The position numbers and the translations under genes are program-made. Below the pieces are notes generated by a model, which searched no databases, was not told where the DNA came from, and saw nothing but the letters and a program-made list of their open reading frames with translations. Source: Escherichia virus Lambda_4B5. Taken from it: a stretch of 48,141 nt of DNA. The DNA is taken from the sequence record LR595863.1, one strand, 5' to 3'. Positions 1 to 30,209 of this stretch are shown one piece after another (positions within the stretch are counted from its first letter, which is position 1; every line of letters begins with the position of its first letter).

Positions 1-190
1 GGGGCGGCGACCTCGCGGGTTTTCGCTATTTATGAAAATTTTCCGGTTTAAGGTGTTTCCGTTCTTCTTCGTCGTAACTTAATGTATTTATTTAAAATAC
101 CCCCTGAAAAGAAAGGAAACGACAGGTGCTGAAAGCGAGCTTTTTGGCCTCTGTCGTTTCCTTTCTCTGTTTTTGTCCGTGGAATGAGCA
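1..190. other. cos: Left cohesive-end region (cosN half-site plus terminase-binding cosB) of a lambda-type genome
   Basis: Window opens with g-GGGCGGCGACCT followed by sequence matching the lambda left end as I remember it, directly upstream of nu1. Confidence 0.85.
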
Positions 191-710
191 ATGGAAGTCA
201 ACAAAAAGCAGCTGGCTGACATTTTCGGTGCGAGTATCCGTACCATTCAGAACTGGCAGGAACAGGGAATGCCCGTTCTGCGAGGCGGTGGCAAGGGTAA
301 TGAGGTGCTTTATGACTCTGCCGCCGTCATAAAATGGTATGCCGAAAGGGATTCTGAAATTGAGAACGAAAAGCTGCGCCGGGAGGTTGAAGAACTGCGG
401 CAGGCCAGCGAGGCAGATCTCCAGCCAGGAACTATTGAGTACGAACGCCATCGACTTACGCGTGCGCAGGCCGACGCACAGGAACTGAAGAATGCCAGAG
501 ACTCCGCTGAAGTGGTGGAAACCGCATTCTGTACTTTCGTGTTGTCGCGGATCGCAGGTGAAATTGCCAGTATTCTCGACGGGCTCCCCCTGTCGGTGCA
601 GCGGCGTTTTCCGGAACTGGAAAACCGACATGTTGATTTCCTGAAACGGGATATCATCAAAGCCATGAACAAAGCAGCCGCGCTGGATGAACTGATACCG
701 GGGTTGCTGA

Positions 711-736
<26 letters not shown>
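191..736 (+). CDS. nu1: Terminase small subunit
   Basis: 181-aa ORF starting MEVNKKQLADIFGASIRTIQNWQEQGMPV matches remembered lambda gpNu1. Confidence 0.95.
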
Positions 737-4417
<3,681 letters not shown>

Positions 4418-8552: not shown

Positions 8553-8944
8553 AACATACTGAACTCCGTGCAGCCGTACTGGATGCACTGGAGAAGCATG
8601 ACACCGGGGCGACGTTTTTTGATGGTCGCCCCGCTGTTTTTGATGAGGCGGATTTTCCGGCAGTTGCCGTTTATCTCACCGGCGCTGAATACACGGGCGA
8701 AGAGCTGGACAGCGATACCTGGCAGGCGGAGCTGCATATTGAAGTTTTCCTGCCTGCTCAGGTGCCGGATTCAGAGCTGGATTCGTGGATGGAGTCCCGG
8801 ATTTATCCGGTGATGAGCGATATCCCGGCACTGTCAGATTTGATCACCAGTATGGTGGCCAGTGGCTATGACTACCGGCGCGACGATGATGCGGGCCTGT
8901 GGAGTTCAGCCGATCTGACTTATGTCATTACCTATGAAATGTGA
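8549..8944 (+). CDS. U: Tail terminator protein U
   Basis: 131-aa ORF, overlapping start/stop with Z, lambda U size. Confidence 0.9.
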
Positions 8945-13118: not shown

Positions 13119-13444
13119 AAACCTTCCGCTGGAAAGTGAAACCGGGTATGGATGTGGCTTCGACTCCTTCCGTCAGGGAGGTGCGCTTTGGTGATGGCTA
13201 TTCCCAGCGAGCGCCTGCCGGGCTGAATGCCAACCTGAAAACGTACAGCGTGACGATTTCTGTCCCCCGTTGGGAGGCCACGGCGCTGGAATCGTTTCTG
13301 GCAGAGCACGGAGGCTGGAAAGCCTTTCTGTGGACGCCGCCTTATGACTGGCGGCAGATAAAGGTGACCTGCGCAAAATGGACGTCGCGGGTCAGTATGC
13401 TGCGTGTTGAGTTCAGCGCAGAGTTTAAACAGGTGGTGAACTGA
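13115..13444 (+). CDS. M: Tail tip protein M
   Basis: 109-aa ORF in lambda M position. Confidence 0.9.
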   Translation: MKTFRWKVKPGMDVASTPSVREVRFGDGYSQRAPAGLNANLKTYSVTISVPRWEATALESFLAEHGGWKAFLWTPPYDWRQIKVTCAKWTSRVSMLRVEFSAEFKQVVN

Positions 13445-19024: not shown

Positions 19025-19038
19025 CACCAGAAATGGTG
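19025..19038. repeat. Target-site duplication, left copy (CACCAGAAATGGTG)
   Basis: Identical 14-nt string abuts both ends of the IS4 copy (also at 20465..20478). Confidence 0.8.
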
Positions 19039-20464
19039 TAATGCCAGTCAGTTAAGCAACTGACTGGCTCTTTTTCGGGGCTGTGGGGTATTTCCAGGGC
19101 CTCTCCTTTACCACTCTCGGGAAGGCCCTTTCCCTTCTTGTCGGTAATTTCACAAGTTGTCCCATACTTGCAAGATCGCGCATCAGCTCCGGTATACGTC
19201 CCGGTGAAGCGCCCTGCAATGTCATCAGCATTCTCATCACCATTCCGCATGATTCTGAGAAACTCAGTTGATTCGGCCAGTAACCTTTCAGATGTTCCGC
19301 CATTTTAATCATCTGATATCTCACCAGATTATAAGCCAGTAAGACACCCCACAGCTCTTGCTCCACAAGCTCCGGCTTTTTACTTCTCAGCGTCAGCCTG
19401 CTCCGTTGCATCGTCTGTTTTATCTCCCTGTATCCCAGTTCGATTTCCCAGCGATGACTGTACAGATCCCCCATTTCTCCTCCGGGGAAGCGCATGGCGT
19501 CCGTCATCGACGTCAGCAGATGGCAGACTTTTCCTTTGCGCGTCACGGTCAGCAGGCGGGCAGTCACTTCATTTCCCAGTCCCGGCCACTTTTTTCGTGC
19601 CTGCGGGCTGGTTTTCAGCTTCACCAGATGATCGCCTTTACCCAGTTTTCTGATCTCTTCATATTGCGCTCCCTTTCTGAGAGGTATCATCCAGTGGCGG
19701 TGTTCTCCCGCCAGGCTCCAGGCATTTAACAGTCCCAGTGAGTAATAACCTTTATCCATTAACGTCAGAGTGTTATCGCCGGTTTGTTCTATAAGTTGCT
19801 CAGCAAGCTCATTTTCGCTGTTCTTCATCGTGCCGAAGGCTGCAGCCGTCAGCAGATGGCTGGTCAGTTCCATCTGGCAGACCATTTTGACCTGCGGGTA
19901 GAGCGCCGGGTTCCCGGCATGTGTCTGGCGGGGGAAGGCTGCATCGTTCTCTGGTGTATCCGGTGTGCGCCAGAACACACCATCGATGGCCAGCAGGGTC
20001 AGGCCGCACCAGTGCGGATGCGGCGTGGCGTTATGCCAGAGCTGCGCTGTTTTCGTGAACACGCGGCGGACAGCCTCACTTCCCAGGCGCTGGCGGGCCT
20101 GAATAACGGCACTGGGGGCAACGAAGGGGCGATTGCCCGGCAGCATGATGTCCAGGCGATTCACAATCTGGTGAAGAGGTTCTTTACGCTCAAGCGCCAT
20201 GCCAACAATACACCAGACCATCATTTCGAGGGGAAGACGGCGCTTGCGTAGCGTTACAGTACCTGATTCGGCAAGGCAACGAGAGATGAGTTCGGGGTCG
20301 AGGTAATCCCCCAGAGAAGTCAGTGGGTTACGCAGAGAATCGTAACGGGATACCAGATCAAGAGCCTGTCCAATGTGCATAAAAAAATCCGGAAACAAGT
20401 GAGCGTTTCCGGATTCTTACACAGCCACTGGATCGGTCAACTGATCCTTAACTGATCGGCATTA
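19039..20464 (-). mobile_element. IS4: IS4 insertion sequence (1426 bp)
   Basis: Imperfect 18-bp terminal inverted repeats (TAATGCCAGTCAGTTAAG at left; complement of CTTAACTGATCGGCATTA at right), single transposase ORF, flanking direct repeat. Confidence 0.9.
19052..20380 (-). CDS. insG: IS4 transposase (DDE family)
   Basis: Translation [40 protein letters not shown]... matches remembered E. coli IS4 transposase; start set at the internal Met of the tool ORF. Confidence 0.88.
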
Positions 20465-20478
20465 CACCAGAAATGGTG
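20465..20478. repeat. Target-site duplication, right copy (CACCAGAAATGGTG)
   Basis: See left copy; followed by GCC TTTTTT completing the disrupted terminator hairpin. Confidence 0.8.
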
Positions 20479-20501
20479 CCTTTTTTATTTGTGGAGTGAA
20501 T

Positions 20502-22523
20502 ATGGCAGTACAGATTTCAGGTGTGCTGAAAGACGGTGCAGGAAAACCGATACAGAACTGCACCATTCAGCTCAAAGCAAAACGTAACAGCACCACAGTT
20601 GTGGTGAACACGGTGGCCTCAGAAAATCCGGATGAAGCCGGACGTTACAGCATGGATGTTGAGTATGGCCAGTACAGCGTCGCCCTGCTGGTTGAAGGTT
20701 TTCCGCCTTCACATGCCGGGACCATCACCGTGTATGAGGATTCTAAGCCGGGGACATTGAATGATTTTCTGGGCGCTGCAACAGAAGATGATGTTTGTCC
20801 GGAGGCACTGTATCGTTTTGAAAAGATGGTGGAAGAGGCGGCACGCAACGCTGAAGCCGCCTCTCAGAGCGCAGCGGCAGCAAAGAAATCAGAAACAGCA
20901 GCGGCATCGTCCAGGAACGCGGCGAAAACATCAGAGACGAATGCAGGTAACAGCGCGAAAGCGGCAGCTTCTTCAAAAACAGCCGCACAAAACGCAGCAA
21001 CAGCGGCAGAACGTTCAGAGACAAATGCCCGTGCGTCAGAAGAAGCCTCCGCAGACAGTGAAGAGGCTTCCCGCCGTAATGCAGAGTCAGCCGCTGAAAA
21101 TGCCGGAGTCGCCACCACAAAAGCGCGGGAGGCCGCAGCAGACGCAACAAAGGCCGGGCAGAAAAAGGATGAGGCTCTGTCGGCAGCGACACGAGCTGAA
21201 AAGGCGGCAGACCGCGCAGAAGCCGCAGCGGAAGTGACTGCAGAGCCCTGTGCGAATATAGTGCCGCCGCTGCCTGATGTGTGGATACCGTTTAACGATT
21301 CACTGGATATGATTACGGGTTTTTCGCCATCTTATAAAAAGATAGTTATTGGTGACGATGAAATAACAATGCCAGGCGACAAGATTGTTAAGTTTAAACG
21401 TGCTTCAACAGCAACGTATATTAATAAGTCCGGCCAACTCAAGCTTGCTGAAGTTGACGAACCGCGATTTGAGCGCGATGGCTTATTGATTGAAGGACAG
21501 AGGACAAATTATCTGAGGAACTCAAATAAACCAGACTCATGGACTGTTCATTCCGCACTGAATAAAACATTTGGCACTGATAAACAGGGGTTCAATTATG
21601 CCACGGTGACACCCACGGAAAGTATAGTGGGAACAACAGGTGGCTATACTGTGCATGGTGTGGTTGCAGCAGACAGATTCCCGCTGGCAAGTGGTGAATG
21701 TTTCACTTTTTCGTGCCGGGTTAAAGGCGCTAAAGCACGATGCAGGTTAAGAGTTTCAGTTATTATTGGTGGAACAGATACCTTCTCTGCTGACTCTTAT
21801 CTTGATCTGGATACCCGGATCGCAACAGTAAGCGGTAATACATCCCTTATAACAGCCAAAGCTGAACAACAGGGCGAGTGGACCTACTATGAGGCCACTT
21901 ATACAGCTAATACGGACATTGATACCGTTAACTGTGCTTTTTATATGACAAATAAAATAAGTAATGAGCCATTCTATGATGACTCAACATTAACCATGAC
22001 GACGCCGCAAATTGAACTGGGCAATACGGCATCGTCATTTATTGTAACTACAATGCCAACAACACGCGCAAGTGATGTAGTTACTATCCCATCGCAGAAT
22101 AACCTGTCAACACGGCCTTTTACGGTATTGTGCGAAGTAAGCAGGAACTGGAGTACACCGCCCAATGTTGCGCCAAGGATATTTGATGTTGGAGGGCACA
22201 GTATTGATGATAATTATTTATCGCTGGGGTTTGTTGCAACAGGAAAGATAAGCGCCAACGTAGGAATGGTTCAGCCACAAATTGCCTCAGATGGAGAAAG
22301 GTTCATTGTGGGTGTGAGAGCTAAATCTGATTTATCAGTAAATGCAATATGCAATGGTAATTATACAACAAACCTTAATGGTAAAATATTTGGAGTTACA
22401 GCAACATCGTACCGGTTTGGTGGGCAGACCGCAGCAGGAACGCGTCATTTGTTTGGACACATCAGAAATTTCAGAGTCTGGTTTAAAGAATTAAATGACA
22501 GGCAAATCAAGGAGGCAGTATGA
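20502..22523 (+). CDS. stf: Side tail fibre protein
   Basis: N-terminus MAVQISGVLKDGAGKPIQNCTIQLKAKRNSTTVVVNTV matches lambda Stf; Ala/Ser-rich repeat shaft; distinct C-terminal domain. Confidence 0.88.
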   Translation: MAVQISGVLKDGAGKPIQNCTIQLKAKRNSTTVVVNTVASENPDEAGRYSMDVEYGQYSVALLVEGFPPSHAGTITVYEDSKPGTLNDFLGAATEDDVCPEALYRFEKMVEEAARNAEAASQSAAAAKKSETAAASSRNAAKTSETNAGNSAKAAASSKTAAQNAATAAERSETNARASEEASADSEEASRRNAESAAENAGVATTKAREAAADATKAGQKKDEALSAATRAEKAADRAEAAAEVTAEPCANIVPPLPDVWIPFNDSLDMITGFSPSYKKIVIGDDEITMPGDKIVKFKRASTATYINKSGQLKLAEVDEPRFERDGLLIEGQRTNYLRNSNKPDSWTVHSALNKTFGTDKQGFNYATVTPTESIVGTTGGYTVHGVVAADRFPLASGECFTFSCRVKGAKARCRLRVSVIIGGTDTFSADSYLDLDTRIATVSGNTSLITAKAEQQGEWTYYEATYTANTDIDTVNCAFYMTNKISNEPFYDDSTLTMTTPQIELGNTASSFIVTTMPTTRASDVVTIPSQNNLSTRPFTVLCEVSRNWSTPPNVAPRIFDVGGHSIDDNYLSLGFVATGKISANVGMVQPQIASDGERFIVGVRAKSDLSVNAICNGNYTTNLNGKIFGVTATSYRFGGQTAAGTRHLFGHIRNFRVWFKELNDRQIKEAV

Positions 22524-22798
22524 AAGATTTAACTTTGAAATTTCCTGGTAACAGAGAGTTTAAATCCTTCCTGTCATCTCTTGACTGGGAGGAGGATGAA
22601 GACCTCCAGAATAAACTGTTAGTCGATGAAATTGGTTTCACCTACACAGAAACAGGGGTAACAGAAGAGGGAGAACCTGTCTGTGTCCGGAATGACGGTT
22701 ATTTTGTCAACATTCGCATTCTTGATGACTTGTTTGATGTTTCTGTATTCTCTGATTATGTCGTGGAGCTGGAAACACCGCTTCGGGAATGGAGCTGA
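22520..22798 (+). CDS. Hypothetical acidic protein coupled to stf (possible fibre chaperone or accessory protein)
   Basis: 92-aa ORF whose ATG overlaps the stf stop (ATGA); no resemblance to lambda Tfa that I can see. Confidence 0.55.
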   Translation: MKDLTLKFPGNREFKSFLSSLDWEEDEDLQNKLLVDEIGFTYTETGVTEEGEPVCVRNDGYFVNIRILDDLFDVSVFSDYVVELETPLREWS

Positions 22799-22810
22799 AA
22801 GGAGGAAATA

Positions 22811-23104
22811 ATGGATATAAGCCCCTTACTTCATGCACTTTGTGCTGTGGCTGCGCAGATACTGGTTGGTCTTTTTACCGGAAACTGGGCTTACGGAGCG
22901 ATAGCCGGTTGTACGTTCTTCATTGCGCGTGAACATACCCAGGCAGAATATCGCTGGATTGAAATGTTCGGGCATGGCAAGCGAATGAATATGCCGTGGT
23001 GGGGCGGTTTTGATCCGCGAGCTTGGGATGTGGCAAGCCTGATGGATTTTGCTGTGCCGGTGGTGGCGTGTCTGCTGGTCTGGCTGTTGGTTAATCGTGG
23101 GTGA
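22811..23104 (+). CDS. Hypothetical small membrane protein
   Basis: 97-aa ORF with GGAAA RBS-like sequence upstream and two hydrophobic segments (N-terminal and C-terminal). Confidence 0.55.
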   Translation: MDISPLLHALCAVAAQILVGLFTGNWAYGAIAGCTFFIAREHTQAEYRWIEMFGHGKRMNMPWWGGFDPRAWDVASLMDFAVPVVACLLVWLLVNRG

Positions 23105-23195
23105 AAAAAGGTGAGCTGTATATGCAACGGAGGAAGAAACCCCGTTGCTGGAAGCCAGGAAAAAGTATCGGGTGTTGCTGTCCTCGGATGTTGTG

Positions 23196-24053
23196 CTAAT
23201 TGGGTGATAACAGATCCTGTGTATGGGAGTTTCCCTTTTTGCGTGCGTTGATGCTGGTAACGGCAAACGTCATGATGAACAAAACCGCGAATAAGACGAC
23301 AATCGTCGGAGCTGGTGCGCTGTCGATAAAAAAGGACAACCAGACACCAGTCATTGACACTATTACCGATATGCCAGTCGCCAGTAGGAGCGCAATATGA
23401 AAGCGTTGTGTCAGGAGTACCGCAATGGCGCCAGGCGCAATGAGCAGAGAAATGGAGAGAATGATACCTACCGCTTTCAGCGTCGCCACAATGGTCAGAG
23501 AGACCATGCACAGCAGCCCATAATGCAGCCATCTCGTATGCAAACCGCTTACCTGCGCCTGTTGATAATCAAAGCTGAACAGCAAAAAATCCCGCCATTT
23601 TACGCTAATAACAAGTGTAACCAGCCCGGCAATAATCATCGTCTGGATTATATCGCCGATGGTTATCCCGAGCATGTCGCCGAAAAGAATATGGTCAAGA
23701 TGTACGTCTGGTTTGACTGCAATATACAAGATCAGACCTGCGGCAAACATGCCAGAAAAAACAATCCCCATCACTGTATCTTGCTTGATTCGGCTGTTGT
23801 CTTTCAGGTATCCCGTCGCCACCGCGCAGAATACTCCGGCGACGAATGCCCCTGTAGCCAAAGGTAACCCCAGAATCCAGGCAAGCACGATGCCAGGAAA
23901 AACCGCATGACTCATCGCGTCACCCATCAGTGCCCAACCTTTCAGGACCAGAAAGACCGACAGCAGCGCACAGGGTATGGAAACTACCAGTGAAATCAGC
24001 AGTGCGTGACTCATAAAGGTGAACTGCAGTGGCTCCAGTAATAATGCCATCAT
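23196..24053 (-). CDS. sitD: Mn/Fe ABC transporter permease
   Basis: 285-aa polytopic membrane protein, last gene of a four-gene metal ABC operon; 4-bp overlap with upstream permease. Confidence 0.85.
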   Translation of the reverse strand: MMALLLEPLQFTFMSHALLISLVVSIPCALLSVFLVLKGWALMGDAMSHAVFPGIVLAWILGLPLATGAFVAGVFCAVATGYLKDNSRIKQDTVMGIVFSGMFAAGLILYIAVKPDVHLDHILFGDMLGITIGDIIQTMIIAGLVTLVISVKWRDFLLFSFDYQQAQVSGLHTRWLHYGLLCMVSLTIVATLKAVGIILSISLLIAPGAIAVLLTQRFHIALLLATGISVIVSMTGVWLSFFIDSAPAPTIVVLFAVLFIMTFAVTSINARKKGNSHTQDLLSPN

Positions 24054-24907
24054 GAGCGATCCTCCAGCGCCTTATGCGCACGCCGACGATTTGCCAAAAG
24101 CCCATGGGTGGGCGCAAAGACAAATGCTAAAAGAAACAGCAGTGTCTGCGCCACCACGATGATTCCACCTGTCGCGCCGTCCAGAAAGTAACTGACCCAC
24201 GCGCCGAGGAAACTGGTTACACTGCCAATAGTTACAGCAATCATGAGCAGGCGGGGAAAACGATCGGTTAACAACCATGCTGTTGCACCGGGAGTCACCA
24301 CCAGACAGATCACCAGAAAGGCACCAACCGTTTGCAGCGCCGCAACGGTCGAAACCGACAGCAGGGTGAAGAAGAGGAGTTTTAATCTGCCCGGATGCAA
24401 TCCAATAGCACGGGCGTGATTCTCGTCGAAAAAGGTCACCATAAGATCTTTCCATTTGAAAAAAAGCACGATGATCGAGAGAATGCCAATGATAGTGAGT
24501 TGCAGGATATCCGCCGGATCGATTGCCAGAATATTGCCCAGGACGATGGTCTGAATGTTCACAGATGTCGGGTTCAATGACACCATAAACAGCCCCAGGC
24601 CAAAAAAGGACGAGAAGATCAGACCGATGATGGCATCTTCTTTTAAGCGGGTGCGTTGGTTAAGAAACAGCATGCTGCCCGCAGCCAGTCCGCCGGAAAA
24701 GAAGGCTCCCAGAGAAAACGGAAGCCCCAGCATATATGCCCCCGCAACACCCGGGACAATAGAGTGCGACAACGCATCGCCAATCAGCGACCAGCCTTTT
24801 AGCATCAGATAGCATGACAGGAAAGCGCAGAGACCGCCGACCATCGCCGAGACCCACATCGCATTGAGCATATATTCATAGCTGAAGGGTTCCAGTAGCA
24901 CGTTCAT
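24050..24907 (-). CDS. sitC: Mn/Fe ABC transporter permease
   Basis: 285-aa polytopic membrane protein of the same family, overlapping neighbours by 4 bp. Confidence 0.85.
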
Positions 24908-25731
24908 CTTTCTTCCCTCTGCACCGCTGACGGTCGATGAGCCACAAAAGGGCGTTCATCGTCAGTAATAATGCTTTCTTCCGAGCCGTTAAGTGTGACA
25001 TGGCGCAGTACGCCGCTAAAAGCCAGCTCTAGGTTCTCGGCTGTAAAAGTGGTGTCTGTCGGCCCGCTTGCCAGGACGGTGCCTTTGACCATGACCGTAT
25101 AATCGCAAAATGTCGTGACGGATCCGAGATTGTGTGTTGAGACAAGCATCGTTTTGCCTTCCGCGCGTAACTCCCTCAACAGGCTGATGATTTTGGCTTC
25201 GGTTTTCACATCAACGCCAGTAAAAGGTTCATCCAGCAGGATCACATCACCCTGCTGTGCAATCGCTCTCGCCAGAAAGACGCGTTTCTTTTGTCCACCG
25301 GAAAGCTCGCCGATTTGTCGATGGCGAAAATTCACCATATCGACACGTTCCAGCGCATCGGTGACAATTTGACGATCCCTCTTTTTGGCGATACGCAACA
25401 TACCCATATGCCCATAGCGGCCCATCATCACCACATCTTCCACCAGTACAGGAAATGACCAGTCAACATCTTCTGACTGAGGGACGTAGGCAACCAGGTT
25501 TTTCTGTAACGCCTGTCGCGTGGGAATACCCAGAACAGATATCTTTCCGCTGGTCAGACGCACAAATCCCATAATCGCTTTAAACAACGTCGATTTTCCG
25601 GAACCGTTTACCCCAACCAGAGCGGCAATAGATCCACTTGGTACTGTGAAGGATGCATCGCGCAGTGCTGTGTGCCCGTTACGCCAGGTGACAGTAACAT
25701 CATTAACGACAATGCCTGCAGATTGCATCAT
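24904..25731 (-). CDS. sitB: Mn/Fe ABC transporter ATP-binding protein
   Basis: Walker [13 protein letters not shown] signature LSGGQKKR, Walker B ILLDEP. Confidence 0.9.
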
Positions 25732-26645
25732 TATTTCTCCCTTTTCCCAGCTTTAATTCCCTGTACCAGCGTACTGGTAGTAACCTTAAGAAGGTCGATA
25801 TACGTCGGTACCGGGCCGTTTTCTGTGCTCAGGGAATCGACATAGAGCACACCGCCGTAGTGTGCGCCGGTTTCACGCGCAACCTGACGCGCTGGTTTAT
25901 CGGAAATCGTACTCTCGCTAAAGACTGCCGGGATATGATTTTTCTTAACTATATCAACAACCTTACGTACCTGCTGCGGTGTTCCTTGTTGATCGGCATT
26001 AATCGGCCACAGATAAAGCTCTTTTAGCCCCAAATCGCGTGCGAGATAAGAAAAAGCCCCTTCACTGGTGACCATCCATCGCTGATTCTCAGGGAGTTCC
26101 GTAATCTGCTTACGCAGGGGGGCAAGGGTTTGGGTAATCTTGGCTTTATAAGTATCGGCATTGCGTTGGTAGGTTTGTGCATTTGCCGGATCGTATTTTA
26201 TCAACGCATCACGAATATTATCGACGTAAATCAGAGCATTATCTGGCGACATCCATGCATGGGGGTTAGGTTTGCCCTCATAGGGTCCTTCGGTGATCCC
26301 TACAGGCGTCACACCCGAAGAGACAATTACTTCTGGAACCCCATTGAGATGCTGGTAAAAGCGTTGGAACCACAATTCCAGATTCATACCATTGGCGAGA
26401 ATCAGTTGTGCCCCCTGCGCACGTTTAATATCGCCAGGGGTAGGCTGATACTCATGAATTTCTGCACCAGGCTTGGTTATGGATGAGACTTCTGCAGCAT
26501 CTCCCGCCACGTTTTTGGCCATATCCGCGATGATGGTAAATGTTGTAATGACCTTGAATTTTTCAGTTGCACTTGCCTGAAATGCGATCGAGCAGGTGAG
26601 TGCGAGCCCCCCCAAGAGCATGGTTACTTTTTTTATCGAGTGCAT
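25731..26645 (-). CDS. sitA: Periplasmic metal-binding protein (cluster A-I solute-binding protein)
   Basis: 304-aa protein with N-terminal signal peptide, His/Glu metal-ligand pattern of SitA/YfeA/MntC-type binding proteins. Confidence 0.88.
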
Positions 26646-26677
26646 AATTTAGTACCTATAGTGAGCAAAATTAGAAC

Positions 26678-26699
26678 AAACATAGCAACGGCTATGTTT
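26678..26699 (-). promoter_or_regulatory. MntR box (Mn-responsive repressor site) in the sitA promoter
   Basis: Near-perfect palindrome AAACATAGC-AACG-GCTATGTTT about 35 bp upstream of sitA ATG, matching the E. coli MntR operator as I remember it from mntH. Confidence 0.7.
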
Positions 26700-26718
26700 T
26701 ATAGCACAGCCTATACAA

Positions 26719-26738
26719 AATGAAAATGATTATCATTA
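26719..26738 (-). promoter_or_regulatory. Fur box in the sitA promoter
   Basis: AAAATGAAAATGATTATCATTAG resembles the Fur consensus GATAATGATAATCATTATC. Confidence 0.65.
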
Positions 26739-27038
26739 GCAGCTTTGAGGCCCAAAACAGGGATTAGGTTGTTTCCTGCTGGCGACGCGTTATTGAGGAA
26801 AAAAGTAAGGCAGCTAGTAGGCTTTGAAATAACGTTTTGCGGTTGGCTGATGCAATTTCGAGAGTGCATGTATTGAATGATTTCTAGCCGTTACTGATTT
26901 TCGTATTTTTTGTATGGGAGGATTTGCACCTCCCCCCACCGAGCCTCCATGACTTTACTCCACTGTCTCTAGGGCTGCTGTGTGCCAGGAGCGGAAGCAG
27001 GGGGGGCCAGAGACTCCTTAAAAGTTGATAGCTCGTTT

Positions 27039-27136
27039 TGCAGGGAGACTTACACGGTAAGCGTTATTCCGAAGAGCTTAAAATTGAAGCAGTCAAACGG
27101 GTTGTTGAGCGTGTTTATGCGCTGCCATCTGATTAA
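27039..27136 (+). pseudogene. Remnant of an IS3-family transposase OrfA N-terminus
   Basis: Short frame translating ...GKRYSEELKIEAVKRVVERVYALPSD* resembles the conserved N-terminus of IS3-family OrfA proteins; truncated at both ends. Confidence 0.35.
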
Positions 27137-27332
27137 TCGACGGAAGCAGTTCCGTTTGGTCTATGATGCAGTTGTCCGGCAGGCGCTCTGTGACGCAAAA
27201 GAACGATAGGAGTAGCATTGAAGTGAACGAGGTTATGCTTGTCTTATATTATCCTCTATTTTAAAAACATCAGCTGGTTGTGTAAGAGTTTTTATTGTTT
27301 TATCTTGTTGACTTTGCTTTTATGAAAACAGA

Positions 27333-28103
27333 GTGATTGATACAATGAAAACCTTAAGTGGGAAAGAGTTTAGGAAATTATTTAATCGTTATGAGACAGG
27401 ATTCTATCTAAGTGAGTTTGAATACTTAAAGGACTTTGATCCTTTGTTTCCTGAATGCGTAGGGAAAGAATTAAAGTTGGGTTATAAACGAAAAGTTGAT
27501 GTATGGTGCGAAGAGGATGCTGCGCTATATGCAGAATTTATAGCTACAAAAGAAAGGCTGAAAAGAGGCCGGTTAATCCTAAAAATAAACCAAGTGTGGT
27601 CGCGTGTATATCCTGCTTATATTTATGCAATTGAAGAAAGAATAAATGTCAGGGCAAAGGGGAGAGAGTCATTTAAGTATGAAACTGTGCAAGAAAAACA
27701 ATGTAAACTTTCCATAATGTTAGATGGTCTGAAAGACCTTGAATGTGAAATAGCTATGATTTCAAGTGAGTTTGAAATTGAAAAACACTCTATGCACTAT
27801 TTTTATATGATTTTTGATATTGAACGCTATATAAATGACTGCAGTTACTTTGTTTTTTCTGCTGCTAAAGTTGTTAAAGGCGTGATTCAATGCATTGGTT
27901 ACATTGACAAAAATAACAAAGCAAGTTGCGATGAATTTTATTCAGGCAGCTATGAATGCTTGGATGATGATCAGGAAACACTGAACTATTTAAATGAATC
28001 ATGCGCAGAGGGTATAGACGCTGATAAAGATCTCATCAGGAAGAATGAGTTATTAGCCTTATCCCTGAAGGAATTGTATCAACTTCTCGTTTCAAAAAAA
28101 TAA
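27333..28103 (+). CDS. Hypothetical protein, AT-rich orphan
   Basis: 256-aa ORF in a markedly AT-rich segment between the sit operon and attP; no family recognised. Confidence 0.7.
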   Translation: MIDTMKTLSGKEFRKLFNRYETGFYLSEFEYLKDFDPLFPECVGKELKLGYKRKVDVWCEEDAALYAEFIATKERLKRGRLILKINQVWSRVYPAYIYAIEERINVRAKGRESFKYETVQEKQCKLSIMLDGLKDLECEIAMISSEFEIEKHSMHYFYMIFDIERYINDCSYFVFSAAKVVKGVIQCIGYIDKNNKASCDEFYSGSYECLDDDQETLNYLNESCAEGIDADKDLIRKNELLALSLKELYQLLVSKK

Positions 28104-28432
28104 CAAGTAATACGGCGAGCGATATGACGTGCCATGGGATATCCGCACCCAGCAGCATGTTGTCTCCACGATGTCCGCAGTTCGCTCATAATAGACATTC
28201 ACTACAGTTATAGTAGAAGGTATGCATGCTGCTGAGTGGGGAAAGTGTGAAAGAAAAGAAGACAGCTGCTTTGTTTGTCGTCACGTTTATCTTCATTGGC
28301 TATGCAAGTCGTAATACAAGGCGGGACAAAACTGAGACACATAAGGCCTCGCAATGGCTTGCAAGGCCACACATGTATTGAGATGTTAATAAAATGTAGA
28401 CTTGTAATTTTGATATAAATGGTAGAGAAAAT

Positions 28433-28445
28433 CTTTCCCCAAAAT
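28433..28445 (+). repeat. Putative integrase arm-type site (P arm copy)
   Basis: CTTTCCCCAAAAT, same motif as the triple repeat next to int. Confidence 0.45.
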
Positions 28446-28571
28446 AAAAACGAACGTCAATGAAATCAAACGGTTGAATAAAGTTGATTTTGGCTAATAC
28501 AAAGACAAGAAAATAATATTTATGATTAAATATCAGCGAGTTGAATACATAATTTTTATATACTGTTACGC

Positions 28572-28727
28572 CATATGGGCTGGACTGAAGCCGCAGACCT
28601 GATTGTTAAAGGTATGGAAGGCGCAATCAACGCCAAGACTGTAACCTATGACTTCGAACGTCTGATGGAAGGCGCTAAATTGCTGAAATGTAGCGAGTTT
28701 GGCGACGCGATCATCAAGAACATGTAA
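28572..28727 (+). pseudogene. icd: Phage-borne 3' fragment of isocitrate dehydrogenase gene (replacement icd end)
   Basis: Frame translates [51 protein letters not shown], the Icd C-terminus with two substitutions relative to the E. coli sequence I remember; homology stops abruptly upstream near 28563. Confidence 0.85.
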
Positions 28728-28750
28728 TCACTACATGTGTTAAATATTTA

Positions 28751-28779
28751 AACGGGCGTGTTATACGCCCGTTGTTTTA
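28751..28779 (+). terminator. Intrinsic terminator following the icd fragment
   Basis: AACGGGCGT-GTTAT-ACGCCCGTT hairpin followed by GTTTTAT. Confidence 0.7.
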
Positions 28780-28793
28780 TGATGATGTAAAAT

Positions 28794-28830
28794 CTTCCCC
28801 AAAACTTTCCCCAAAACCCTTCCCCAAAAC
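28794..28830 (+). repeat. Three tandem arm-type repeats (P' arm), CTTCCCCAAAAC x3
   Basis: CTTCCCCAAAAC / TTTCCCCAAAAC / CCTTCCCCAAAAC in direct tandem immediately downstream of int stop. Confidence 0.6.
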
Positions 28831-28840
28831 TGGCTATTTT

Positions 28841-29983
28841 CTATGCTGTTTTGATATCTACGATAACCCAGTCTTTACCACGATCATCATTGTATCGGTC
28901 GGTCATTTTTCTGGATTTATGGCCTAACAACTTTTGCGTATCCAGACCCTGTTCCCGATATAACCGTTCTGACAGAGATCGCTGCTCATGAAATGTGGGC
29001 GCAGTTCCTTGCTCCCATTTTATGCCACATTTTTCCCTGGCCTTTTTAAAAGCCGTTGTCAGAGTATTTGCAGAAACCTGGTCTCCTCTGTTTGCTTGAG
29101 AGGTAGTGTGACGGTAATGGACCAGATATTTACTAACAACAGCATCCCTGCACTGAGATATAACTTCACGAAGGGTAATATTCAGAGCATCGCATTTCAG
29201 GTTAAGCGGAATAGCAAGTTTTGAACCGGTTTTTTCCTGAGTAATGTGCAACATGTCGTCCCAGATATCAGAGAATTTCAAATTGCAGATATCACCTAAA
29301 CGTTGTCCAGTAACAAGAGCAAGTAGCATGCCGCATTTTAAATAGGGCTGCCGTCTGCTTACGCTTTCAAATATTGCCTGCCATTCGGGCAGTGACAATC
29401 TTTGGCGGTTTACTCGATTTCGCGGTTGTTTTGTTGCCTGCGCTGGGTTAAATCCTGGCGGAACATGTCCTGCGTGTTGTGCTTCTTTGAAGACGTCGAT
29501 CAACACCATTCTCACGACTTGCGCCATCCTGTTATGACCTTCAGCCTTTACAGCATCAATTATTTCGGCAATATCAAGTGCGGTAATATCCTTGAGGTGT
29601 TGCATTCCACAATGCTCACGGAAAAGACGAATGGGTTTGCCTTTTTGCCGATAGGAGTTGGGTCTTAGTTCATTATGTTGCAGCCTGTCCTCCTGGATAG
29701 AAATATATTTATCAAGCCATTCTGTCACCGTAATTTCTGAGCGCCTGCCTTTCATTCTTTCCAGACGCTCATTGACGCTTAATATTTGTCGGGTACGTTG
29801 TTCAGCAATAATGGTATTTGCTTCAGTAGCAACTTGTTTTGCTTCATTCTCATCAGTTCCTAAGCTATGAAAACGACCGGATAGTGGATGTTTGTATTGC
29901 CAATATACCTTTCCGGTTCGCTTATCTAATTTGCAATATAAATTGGGTATAGAGATTTTGTGAGATCGGGGTCTAGCAGCCAT
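28841..29983 (-). CDS. int: Tyrosine integrase (lambda family, icd-targeting type)
   Basis: 380-aa ORF with C-terminal catalytic region (R...HxxR...Y pattern: LGHKSRKMTDRY), adjacent to attP and xis. Confidence 0.9.
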   Translation of the reverse strand: MAARPRSHKISIPNLYCKLDKRTGKVYWQYKHPLSGRFHSLGTDENEAKQVATEANTIIAEQRTRQILSVNERLERMKGRRSEITVTEWLDKYISIQEDRLQHNELRPNSYRQKGKPIRLFREHCGMQHLKDITALDIAEIIDAVKAEGHNRMAQVVRMVLIDVFKEAQHAGHVPPGFNPAQATKQPRNRVNRQRLSLPEWQAIFESVSRRQPYLKCGMLLALVTGQRLGDICNLKFSDIWDDMLHITQEKTGSKLAIPLNLKCDALNITLREVISQCRDAVVSKYLVHYRHTTSQANRGDQVSANTLTTAFKKAREKCGIKWEQGTAPTFHEQRSLSERLYREQGLDTQKLLGHKSRKMTDRYNDDRGKDWVIVDIKTA

Positions 29984-30209
29984 CAGCGATTATCCGTTGG
30001 AGTTTTGGGTTTGCGTTTATTGGGAGTTGCGGTTCTGCAAGCGTTCCTACAAAACGGGAATTTCGGTCAATCATCCAGTAGCGACCAACTTTTATAGCGG
30101 GTGGGGCCATCATTTTCCCTTGCGCGTATTTTTTCAGAACTCGCTCACTTGGTGCTAAGTCCCCAAATTCTTCTTTAGCCCAGTCCTGTAAAGTGATTAG
30201 TCGAGACAT
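29973..30209 (-). CDS. xis: Excisionase
   Basis: 78-aa ORF overlapping int start, MSRLITLQDWAKEE... with winged-helix-like region similar to lambda Xis. Confidence 0.8.
   Translation of the reverse strand: MSRLITLQDWAKEEFGDLAPSERVLKKYAQGKMMAPPAIKVGRYWMIDRNSRFVGTLAEPQLPINANPKLQRIIADGC

Follow-up and report, generated by a model that had tools for sequence, protein, structure and literature searches.

The question raised by this locus is whether the metal-transport operon found in the b-region of this lambdoid genome is a manganese/iron importer carried by a temperate phage, a transporter of some other kind or purpose, or a part of a prophage that has stopped moving. The window, i.e., the whole stretch of DNA that was analyzed (48,141 bp), was studied with respect to gene content, protein family, metal ligands, operators, completeness of the phage, attP structure, and prevalence. 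The reading that we favor, with a probability of about 0.92, is that sitABCD is an Mn2+/Fe2+ importer and a self-regulated moron in the b-region of an icd-integrating, lambda-like temperate phage. For transport, regulation, and expression this reading draws, by analogy, on published work on near-identical loci.

The sit operon is located between the tail-fiber genes and attP/int, antisense to the late genes, and its genes follow each other in the order sitA-sitB-sitC-sitD:

25731-26645, minus strand: sitA, ORF of 304 aa, periplasmic Mn/Fe-binding protein with a Sec-type signal peptide
24904-25731, minus strand: sitB, ORF of 275 aa, ABC ATPase
24050-24907, minus strand: sitC, ORF of 285 aa, inner-membrane permease (Pfam ABC-3)
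23196-24053, minus strand: sitD, ORF of 285 aa, inner-membrane permease (Pfam ABC-3)

The overlaps between the window ORFs are 1, 4, and 4 bp. A four-gene metal ABC transporter with overlaps of 1 to 4 bp, placed antisense to the late operon between the tail-fiber genes and attP/int, had been described in an earlier, sequence-only reading of this DNA, and the coordinates and the minus-strand orientation of the ORFs bear out both the gene set and its position.

The Pfam set of the operon comprises ZnuA, ABC_tran, and two ABC-3 matches (a binding protein, an ATPase, and two permeases, respectively). SitA scores 288 bits against the Pfam ZnuA family, while SitC and SitD score 278.8 and 257.8 bits against ABC-3. 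SitB passes the NCBIfam equivalog NF011630 (PRK15056; manganese/iron ABC transporter ATP-binding protein) with 592.8 bits at a cut-off of 393, and its Walker A (GVNGSGKS), signature (LSGGQ), and Walker B (VILLDE) motifs are intact. The best solved relative of SitA is YfeA of Y. pestis (E=4e-125), with 64.6% identity over 274 aa. In the sequence alignment, residues H64, H129, E195, and D270 of SitA coincide with H76, H141, E207, and D282 of YfeA, which we take to be the site-1 metal ligands (YfeA structures, 5UXS series). As judged from this alignment, SitA keeps the His/His/Glu/Asp metal site of the Mn/Fe type.

Upstream of sitA, the pattern search returned two predicted operators:

26722-26740, minus strand: predicted Fur box GCTAATGATAATCATTTTC, 17 of 19 consensus positions matched
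26678-26699, minus strand: predicted MntR-type operator, perfect palindrome AAACATAGC-N4-GCTATGTTT

For the Fur box, the chance expectation over the window is 0.02 matches. The MntR palindrome is a perfect match (chance expectation 0) and is found 32 nt upstream of the sitA ATG, and an upper limit of 26760 for the locus covers the promoter/operator region as well. The identical pair of half-sites, AAACATAGC-N4-GCTATGTTT, is present just upstream of mntH in E. coli K-12, where the palindrome is preceded by a Fur-box-like sequence, the same arrangement as in front of sitA. The mntH promoter, however, drives an Nramp-type proton symporter, whereas the operators in the window precede an ABC importer.

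The extent of the mobile unit can be described as follows:

23169-26833, minus strand: sit cassette, limits common to plasmid-borne and other chromosomal sit copies

These limits were taken from plasmid matches to query positions 670-4334 of window 22500-28900, and the homology to the sit-less relative ev243 ends at window position 23151. The operon has a predicted promoter and operators of its own and an orientation independent of the phage operons, as is characteristic of a moron. The terminator scan revealed no canonical intrinsic terminator downstream of sitD, where a modest hairpin with a distant T-run (z = -1.9) is present, and the 3' end of the cassette is therefore not defined as in a textbook moron.

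In a lysogen, the late operon is silent, and sit, on the opposite strand, would be read from a promoter of its own; Fur, responding to iron, and MntR, responding to manganese, both of them host repressors, would control it, so that it would be switched on when these metals are scarce. SitA would capture the metal in the periplasm and SitCD would move it across the inner membrane, with SitB supplying the power. The lysogen would gain metal uptake and peroxide resistance, and the phage would benefit through the fitness of its host, with an operon that can be moved to new strains.

Published work on Sit describes transport of Mn and Fe, repression by MntR and Fur, and a role in virulence and in resistance to H2O2 (PMC3852070). 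Four genes arranged in this way, and of these protein families, are also found in sit of Salmonella (SPI-1), Shigella flexneri ("PAI sit"), and APEC/ColV plasmids, as well as in YfeABCD of Y. pestis, where YfeA is 65% identical to the SitA of the window and has the same ligands. The Salmonella and Shigella operons are under Fur and MntR control (PMC3852070), and the window has both operators as predictions. The difference lies in the vehicle, which is an inducible-type lambdoid genome at icd in the window, and SPI-1, a conjugative plasmid, or a decayed island in the others (PMC7545054). The sit DNA of the window is 97-98% identical to that of ColV-type plasmids (e.g., NC_007675), and the sit locus together with the phage flanks is present in 740 of 5,426 complete E. 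coli genomes. The ST131 "tailocin" (PMC9205054), also considered, is a P2-like element unrelated to the window.

The window is a whole lambdoid genome opened at cos, with 99.3% of the lambda length. The features that define its ends and its integration region are:

1-190, plus strand: cos left side, with the 12-nt cohesive end at 2-13 and the cosB region preceding nu1 (191-736)
~47941-48141: cos right side, assigned by similarity to the lambda end
~28564-28780, plus strand: attP region with the phage-borne icd 3' end (stop codon 28725-28727) and a terminator hairpin
28841-29983, minus strand: phage-21-type tyrosine integrase (Pfam Arm-DNA-bind_1 and Phage_integrase)
29973-30209: xis ORF, following int, with an excisionase annotation

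Position 1 corresponds to the last base of the lambda right end and positions 2-13 are GGGCGGCGACCT; both window ends are 97-98% identical to lambda cos. The nu1 and A genes are found at lambda coordinates, and from nu1 to J every head or tail gene position of lambda that was checked is occupied by a full-length ORF. Over the right arm, the window agrees at 100% with Lambda_2E9, an isolated phage whose annotation lists int, xis, exo/bet/gam, an N-like regulator, cI, cro, cII, O, P, Q, S, R, and Rz. On the basis of the ORFs and the identity to Lambda_2E9, the head, tail, lysis, replication, immunity, and integration modules are complete. Read in this way, the window is a lambda-like cos-type temperate phage genome carrying sitABCD as b-region cargo, and the ORFs, the cos identity, and the identity to Lambda_2E9 agree with the lambdoid genome with cos and head, tail, lysis, and replication sets that had been recognized earlier.

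The int gene of the window is 98.2% identical in nucleotide sequence to M61865, the int record of phage 21. The icd fragment at attP matches the icd of nearly all E. coli genomes at 90-93%. In lysogen 3347558, the attL side is identical to the phage icd copy, and attR contains a displaced host icd remnant with SNPs; from these junctions, the phage icd 3' end is seen to replace the host icd end on integration. Both a substitute icd 3' end and a phage-21-related integrase are thus present, as in the phage 21/e14-type integration at icd.

The closest relative, Lambda_2E9, is identical to the window genome-wide, sit included, except for IS4 and two single-base differences, namely a substitution at 8713 and one C (after 13348) that is missing from the window. 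The extra C truncates gene M in the Lambda_2E9 record, and gene M of the window is intact; a frameshift in a structural gene of the window was considered and dismissed, as the truncation belongs to the other record. Lambda_2G7a, 1H12, Lambda_ev245, ev110, ev066, ev087, and ev203 match the window at a rounded 100% in half-genome searches (the full-length alignment was made for Lambda_2E9 alone). Compared with the Lambda_2E9 group of coliphages, the window has an additional 1,426-bp IS4 at 19039-20464. These are temperate coliphages from the infant gut (Mathieu et al. 2020, PMC6969025), placed in Jouyvirus in the GenBank taxonomy, and they come from plaques on E. coli K-12 or C (PMC6969025). In the same study, sitABCD was found on 70% of the plaque-isolated lambda coliphages, and phage-borne sit was already noted to have a fur box upstream (Mathieu et al. 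2020, PMC6969025).

Phage 21 (OL657228) and the LF82 prophage Perceval (OV696612) have the same block of sitABCD, flanking gene, attP(icd), and int at 99.3-99.4% identity (99.4% for the Perceval sit locus) and share with the window the icd-replacing integration scheme. They are otherwise mosaic, covering 62-85% of each window half at 96-98% identity, and, unlike the window, they have no IS4. Perceval is active and forms plaques, and in the LF82 lysogen the sit genes are transcribed 4-13 fold over the prophage background (PMC9928086). The suggestion that sit is transducible here and not bound to a remnant, made from the letters of the window, has thus been demonstrated for essentially the same genome, as the IS4-free twins were isolated as plaques and Perceval and phage 21 share the locus. 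Phage-borne sitABCD has been in the literature since 2020 (PMC6969025, PMC9928086) and is very common. Its significance is that temperate phages spread countermeasures to nutritional immunity among commensal and pathogenic E. coli, a point already established by the isolation of such phages, by transcriptomes of lysogens, and by surveys of populations. The window adds one more sit copy and a minor structural variant, and is a cleanly annotated, confirmed example rather than a discovery.

The structural variant is the IS4 insertion in front of the side tail-fiber gene:

19039-20464, minus strand: IS4, 1,426 bp, ends read, in the intergenic hairpin between J and the tail-fiber gene; the only large difference from Lambda_2E9
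19052-20398: IS4 transposase ORF (Pfam Nterm_IS4 and DDE_Tnp_1)
20496-22523, plus strand: side tail-fiber gene, 675 aa (phrog_1419 / phrog_3279 tail and tail-fiber families, 20496-23104)
22520-22798 and 22811-23104, plus strand: two small genes 3' of the tail-fiber gene, the last late-operon genes before sit

The element, named "IS4-like element IS4 family transposase" by PGAP, has the termini TAATGCC...GGCATTA and is flanked by a 14-bp target duplication, CACCAGAAATGGTG, at 19025-19038 and 20465-20478. The length of ~1.4 kb, the terminal inverted repeats, the target duplication of more than 10 bp, and the DDE transposase of the IS4 family all identify the element as IS4. The insertion lies 18 bp upstream of the tail-fiber ORF and 24 bp upstream of its likely ATG. 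The description of the genome as "apparently intact" overlooked this IS4 just upstream of the tail-fiber gene. PGAP splits the tail-fiber gene into two pseudogene pieces in several genomes, and a broken gene was therefore considered; the window ORF is continuous (675 aa) and identical to those of the isolated phages.

Among 50,697 phage records, no counterpart of the IS4-bearing version was found (best coverage 94%), and the J-IS4 junction occurs only in nine chromosomes, as prophage, FDAARGOS_1291 being one of these strains. Four of the nine IS4 lysogens were examined, and all of them agree in the protein accessions of the host flanks and share a pdeG pseudogene; the host-flank alleles of an IS4-free lysogen are different. 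This suggests that the four are one clone. Horizontal spread of the IS4-bearing prophage finds no support in the host flanks of these four lysogens, flanks alone not being decisive, and this exact element may now be inherited vertically only.

The alternatives concern the substrate, the beneficiary, and the mobility of the locus. A zinc-specific transporter (ZnuABC- or AztABCD-like), or one for another substrate, would make the sit label wrong; the name of the Pfam family of SitA, ZnuA, points in this direction, as do the sizeable scores with the zinc models AztC (197) and AztB (185-186), although these remain below the cut-offs of 350 and 280. The NCBIfam ZnuA model gives 66 bits with the sit proteins at a cut-off of 268 and the ZnuB model 78 bits for SitC and 70.5 for SitD at a cut-off of 284, whereas SitB passes the Mn/Fe equivalog. 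The equivalog thresholds of ZnuA and ZnuB are thus missed, and where the zinc importer has a metal site with three His, SitA has Glu as the third ligand; a predicted MntR operator is present and the DNA is 97-98% identical to ColV-type plasmid sit. Model scores and ligand identity led us to discard the zinc reading, to which we assign a very low probability. By sequence, the genes encode a SitABCD/YfeABCD-type Mn/Fe ABC importer and not ZnuABC, in agreement with the earlier identification as Sit, for which a comparison with SitABCD/YfeABCD had been proposed: SitA is 64.6% identical to YfeA, SitB meets the Mn/Fe equivalog, and the Znu models stay below cut-off. It is also very improbable that sit serves as an auxiliary metabolic gene in the lytic cycle, providing metal for phage replication, and not in lysogenic conversion. 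Read-through from the late operon or from pL could, in principle, extend into b-region cargo, with nothing direct in favor of this reading, but sit is antisense to the late operon, is preceded by predicted operators of host metal repressors, and is expressed in the uninduced lysogen (PMC9928086), and auxiliary metabolic genes were confined to virulent phages in PMC6969025.

The distribution of IS4 bears on another possibility, that this copy is a domesticated or crippled prophage whose spread was stopped by IS4 or another defect, with sit as a vertically inherited chromosomal island. The phage records without IS4, the confinement of the J-IS4 junction to nine chromosomes, and the host flanks and pdeG pseudogene shared by the four examined lysogens, but not by the IS4-free one, are in its favor. 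IS4 lies, however, between genes, and all phage ORFs are intact and identical to those of the plaque-forming twins. The genome length of 48,141 bp (99.3% of lambda) fits the cos packaging limits, and lambda PaPa still forms plaques without functional side tail fibers; Q-antiterminated late transcription may, in addition, read through IS4. We consider domestication possible, though not likely. That the IS4-bearing version is still an infectious phage, carrying sitABCD from strain to strain together with a live copy of IS4, is rather doubtful; if it were, it would be a natural vehicle for both. IS4 splits a terminator-like hairpin upstream of the side tail-fiber gene, which could alter fiber expression and hence the host range in comparison with the twins.

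On the other side of the operon, next to sitA, lies one further gene:

27333-28103, plus strand: gene of 256 aa with no assigned function (phrog_20520)

A defense role was considered for this gene and for the gene of 299 aa at the position of rex, and was set aside, as neither shows a Pfam match or a credible PADLOC match. The 256-aa gene has a GC content of ~36% and travels with sit next to attP.

The four sit genes form an operon on the minus strand, at exactly the coordinates given for them in the sequence-only reading, with consecutive ORFs overlapping by 1, 4, and 4 bp. The ORFs also confirm the placement described there: the operon runs antisense to the phage late operon, between the tail-fibre genes and attP/int.

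20496-22523, tail-fibre gene (675 aa), on the late-operon upstream side of sit
ending at 23104, two small genes between the tail-fibre gene and sit
23196-24053, minus strand, sitD, ORF of 285 aa
24050-24907, minus strand, sitC, ORF of 285 aa
24904-25731, minus strand, sitB, ORF of 275 aa
25731-26645, minus strand, sitA, ORF of 304 aa
27333-28103, plus strand, 256-aa gene
about 28564-28780, icd-like attP region, beyond the 256-aa gene
28841-30209, int and xis, past attP

The terminator scan found no canonical intrinsic terminator 3' of sitD. The limits of the cassette follow from plasmid copies, whose homology is confined to 23169-26833, and from the sit-less relative ev243, in which homology ends at 23151. 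The 256-aa gene between sitA and attP (~36% GC) travels with the sit-attP block; it shows no Pfam family and no credible defence-system match, and belongs to phrog_20520 (function unknown).

SitB scores 592.8 bits (cut-off 393) with the NCBIfam equivalog PRK15056 (manganese/iron ABC transporter ATPase), and its Walker A, signature, and Walker B motifs are all intact. In Pfam, SitA falls into a ZnuA-named superfamily, and SitC and SitD are ABC-3 permeases. The zinc-specific ZnuABC family, against which the Mn/Fe assignment had originally been set, scores far under the cut-offs (66 bits with 268 for ZnuA, 70-78 with 284 for ZnuB), and the Sit identity survives; the zinc AztC/AztB models are likewise under cut-off. 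The closest solved structure to SitA is Yersinia pestis YfeA (E = 4e-125; 64.6% identical across 274 residues), followed by cyanobacterial MntC and a Salmonella SitA fragment, with ZnuA proteins ranked last. Residues H64, H129, E195, and D270 of SitA align to H76, H141, E207, and D282 of YfeA, which we take to be Mn/Fe-type ligands, with Glu replacing the third His of zinc proteins (YfeA and PsaA structures).

A Fur box (GCTAATGATAATCATTTTC, 26722-26740) is located 5' of sitA and matches 17 of the 19 consensus positions (0.02 chance matches are expected in the window). Nearer to sitA, 32 nt before its ATG, lies a perfect palindrome, AAACATAGC-N4-GCTATGTTT (26678-26699; chance expectation 0). 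Direct comparison with the K-12 mntH promoter reveals the identical palindrome just ahead of the start codon, preceded by the Fur-box-like tgataatcattctc; in both promoters the Fur-like box is on the upstream side of the palindrome. Repression of both sitABCD and mntH by MntR and Fur is established (review PMC3852070). Given this repression, the Fur box and the MntR-type palindrome indicate that phage-borne sit is wired into the host iron and manganese regulons, with Fur and MntR binding predicted from the sites. A further Fur-box-like sequence, CAAAATGATAATAATTATC (3 mismatches; 48093-48111, minus strand), is found about 30-50 bp from the right cohesive end, and the matching site in lambda (~48450-48470) has a better core, GATGATAATCATTATCAC; we know of no reported significance of this sequence.

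The ORFs, family scores, and phage context confirm the initial observation and support its interpretation overall. The sitABCD operon is best regarded as a putative lysogenic-conversion cassette (probability about 0.9), in which low Fe or Mn would derepress sit through Fur and MntR, SitA, SitCD, and SitB would import Mn2+ and Fe2+, and the lysogen would gain better growth under metal restriction and peroxide resistance. Both benefits have been shown for near-identical sit loci (PMC3852070). A different substrate is extremely improbable, the ZnuA-named superfamily of SitA being set against the family scores and structure ranking. A role as a lytic-cycle auxiliary gene is very unlikely: in the LF82 lysogen, the sit genes of the active prophage Perceval are transcribed 4-13 fold over the prophage background, and that prophage also yielded virions and plaques (Misson et al. 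2023, PMC9928086).

The window is an entire genome, cos to cos, with position 1 corresponding to lambda's last base and the cohesive end GGGCGGCGACCT at positions 2-13. Identity to lambda is 97-98% at both ends, nu1 and A are at lambda's own coordinates, and each head/tail gene position checked, from nu1 to J, holds a full-length ORF. The isolated phage Lambda_2E9 (LR595860.1) matches all of the window from 20465 onwards at 100% identity; its annotation lists int, xis, exo, bet, gam, kil, sieB, an N-like regulator, cI, cro, cII, O, P, ren, nin genes, rusA, Q, holin, lysozyme, Rz, and bor. The intact lambda-type genome proposed by the sequence-only reading holds in these respects, but an IS4 insertion had been overlooked. 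Integration is of the classical phage 21/e14 type: the attP region carries a substitute icd 3' end, the integrase gene shares 98.2% identity with the phage 21 int record, and in lysogen 3347558 the phage copy completes icd at attL, with the displaced host remnant (several SNPs) at attR.

Lambda_2E9 matches the whole window except for one insertion and two single-base differences; the window is 1,439 bp longer in total. An extra C at 13348 of LR595860.1 (versus window 13349) truncates tail gene M to 297 instead of 330 nt, whereas the window and RefSeq lysogens encode an intact 109-aa M; this probably reflects faulty sequencing or assembly of the record, or a genuine defect of the isolate. The IS4 element (19039-20464; 1,426 bp) has TAATGCC...GGCATTA ends, a minus-strand IS4-family DDE transposase (the PGAP name agrees), and a 14-bp target duplication (CACCAGAAATGGTG, 19025-19038 and 20465-20478). 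It interrupts no coding sequence, splits a terminator-like hairpin in the spacer between J and the tail-fibre gene, and ends 18 bp short of the tail-fibre ORF and 24 bp short of its likely ATG. In several lysogens PGAP splits the tail-fibre gene into two partial pseudogenes (L003 40756-42777; L006 30502-32523), yet this DNA, as in the window, encodes one continuous 675-aa ORF; the split looks like an annotation artefact from a mosaic fibre protein.

The insertion was not found in any phage-collection record (best coverage 94%), whereas nine complete E. coli genomes contain its exact junction. Over the window's first 24.9 kb, three of these (FDAARGOS_1291, PS1Phumofeces1, PCP06238) align at full coverage with 100% identity, and the window is therefore the same IS4-bearing prophage. 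Host flanks were examined in four of these genomes, two of USA origin and two from Chinese cities; in all four, eight neighbouring host genes have matching protein accessions and pdeG is the same pseudogene, whereas an IS4-free sit lysogen differs in its ycgX, bluR, and bluF alleles. Judged on these four, the comparison suggests that the IS4 copy has been inherited vertically within a single widespread clone, and their flanks give no evidence for or against spread as phage. The window copy may by now have become an immobile and domesticated prophage, though this is rather unlikely; it would concern mobility only, leaving sit function unaffected. At 99.3% of lambda's length the genome should stay within packaging limits despite IS4, and laboratory lambda can form plaques without side tail fibres. 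In three chromosomal loci (L003, L008, L009) the IS4 insertion and host flanks are identical, yet the terminase, portal, protease, decoration, and capsid genes differ from the window, as do the tail genes in eco-241; the overall identity of such variants to the window is 99.1% and 98.1%. This indicates that, once IS4 had inserted, head/tail genes recombined with those of other lambdoid prophages.

Ten deposited phage genomes, among them Lambda_2E9, 2G7a, 1H12, ev245, ev110, ev066, ev087, ev203, and ev058, match the 6.4-kb block between the tail-fibre end and int at 100% identity; in Perceval, ev017, ev207, and phage 21 itself the identity is 99.2-99.4%. The sit operon (at least 80% coverage) occurs in 2,337 of 5,426 complete E. 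coli genomes, in 1,683 chromosomal and 1,061 plasmid places, and in 1,027 PLSDB plasmids; 740 of the genomes also carry the window's phage flanks. The description of sit as cargo of a lambda-type phage was correct, but phage-borne sitABCD is already known (PMC6969025, PMC9928086). Mathieu et al. 2020 (PMC6969025) reported sitABCD in 70% of lambda phages, in all cases with an upstream fur box; their phages, Lambda_2E9 and the other coliphages of its set among them, came from culture supernatants of infant-gut isolates or directly from viromes and were isolated as plaques, with K-12 or E. coli C as the host. For Shigella and E. coli, sit in unstable, island-like chromosomal contexts has been on record since 2009 (PMC7545054 gives a summary). 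The IS4 variant is the only unreported detail and is of minor interest.

Other cargo is also present. A 299-aa gene (35754-36653, minus strand) between the N-like gene and cI, the position of lambda rexAB, has no Pfam or PADLOC match; it may be a moron for exclusion or defence. SieB is at 34405-34986. Further cargo at 43000-45726 (between Q and the lysis genes) and 47096-47389 (past Rz) comprises a Blc-like lipocalin (minus strand), a YbgA-like protein (2-thiouracil desulfurase and DUF1722), an AraC-type HTH protein, and Bor/Iss. This cargo agrees with the published figure of about four morons per lambda (PMC6969025).
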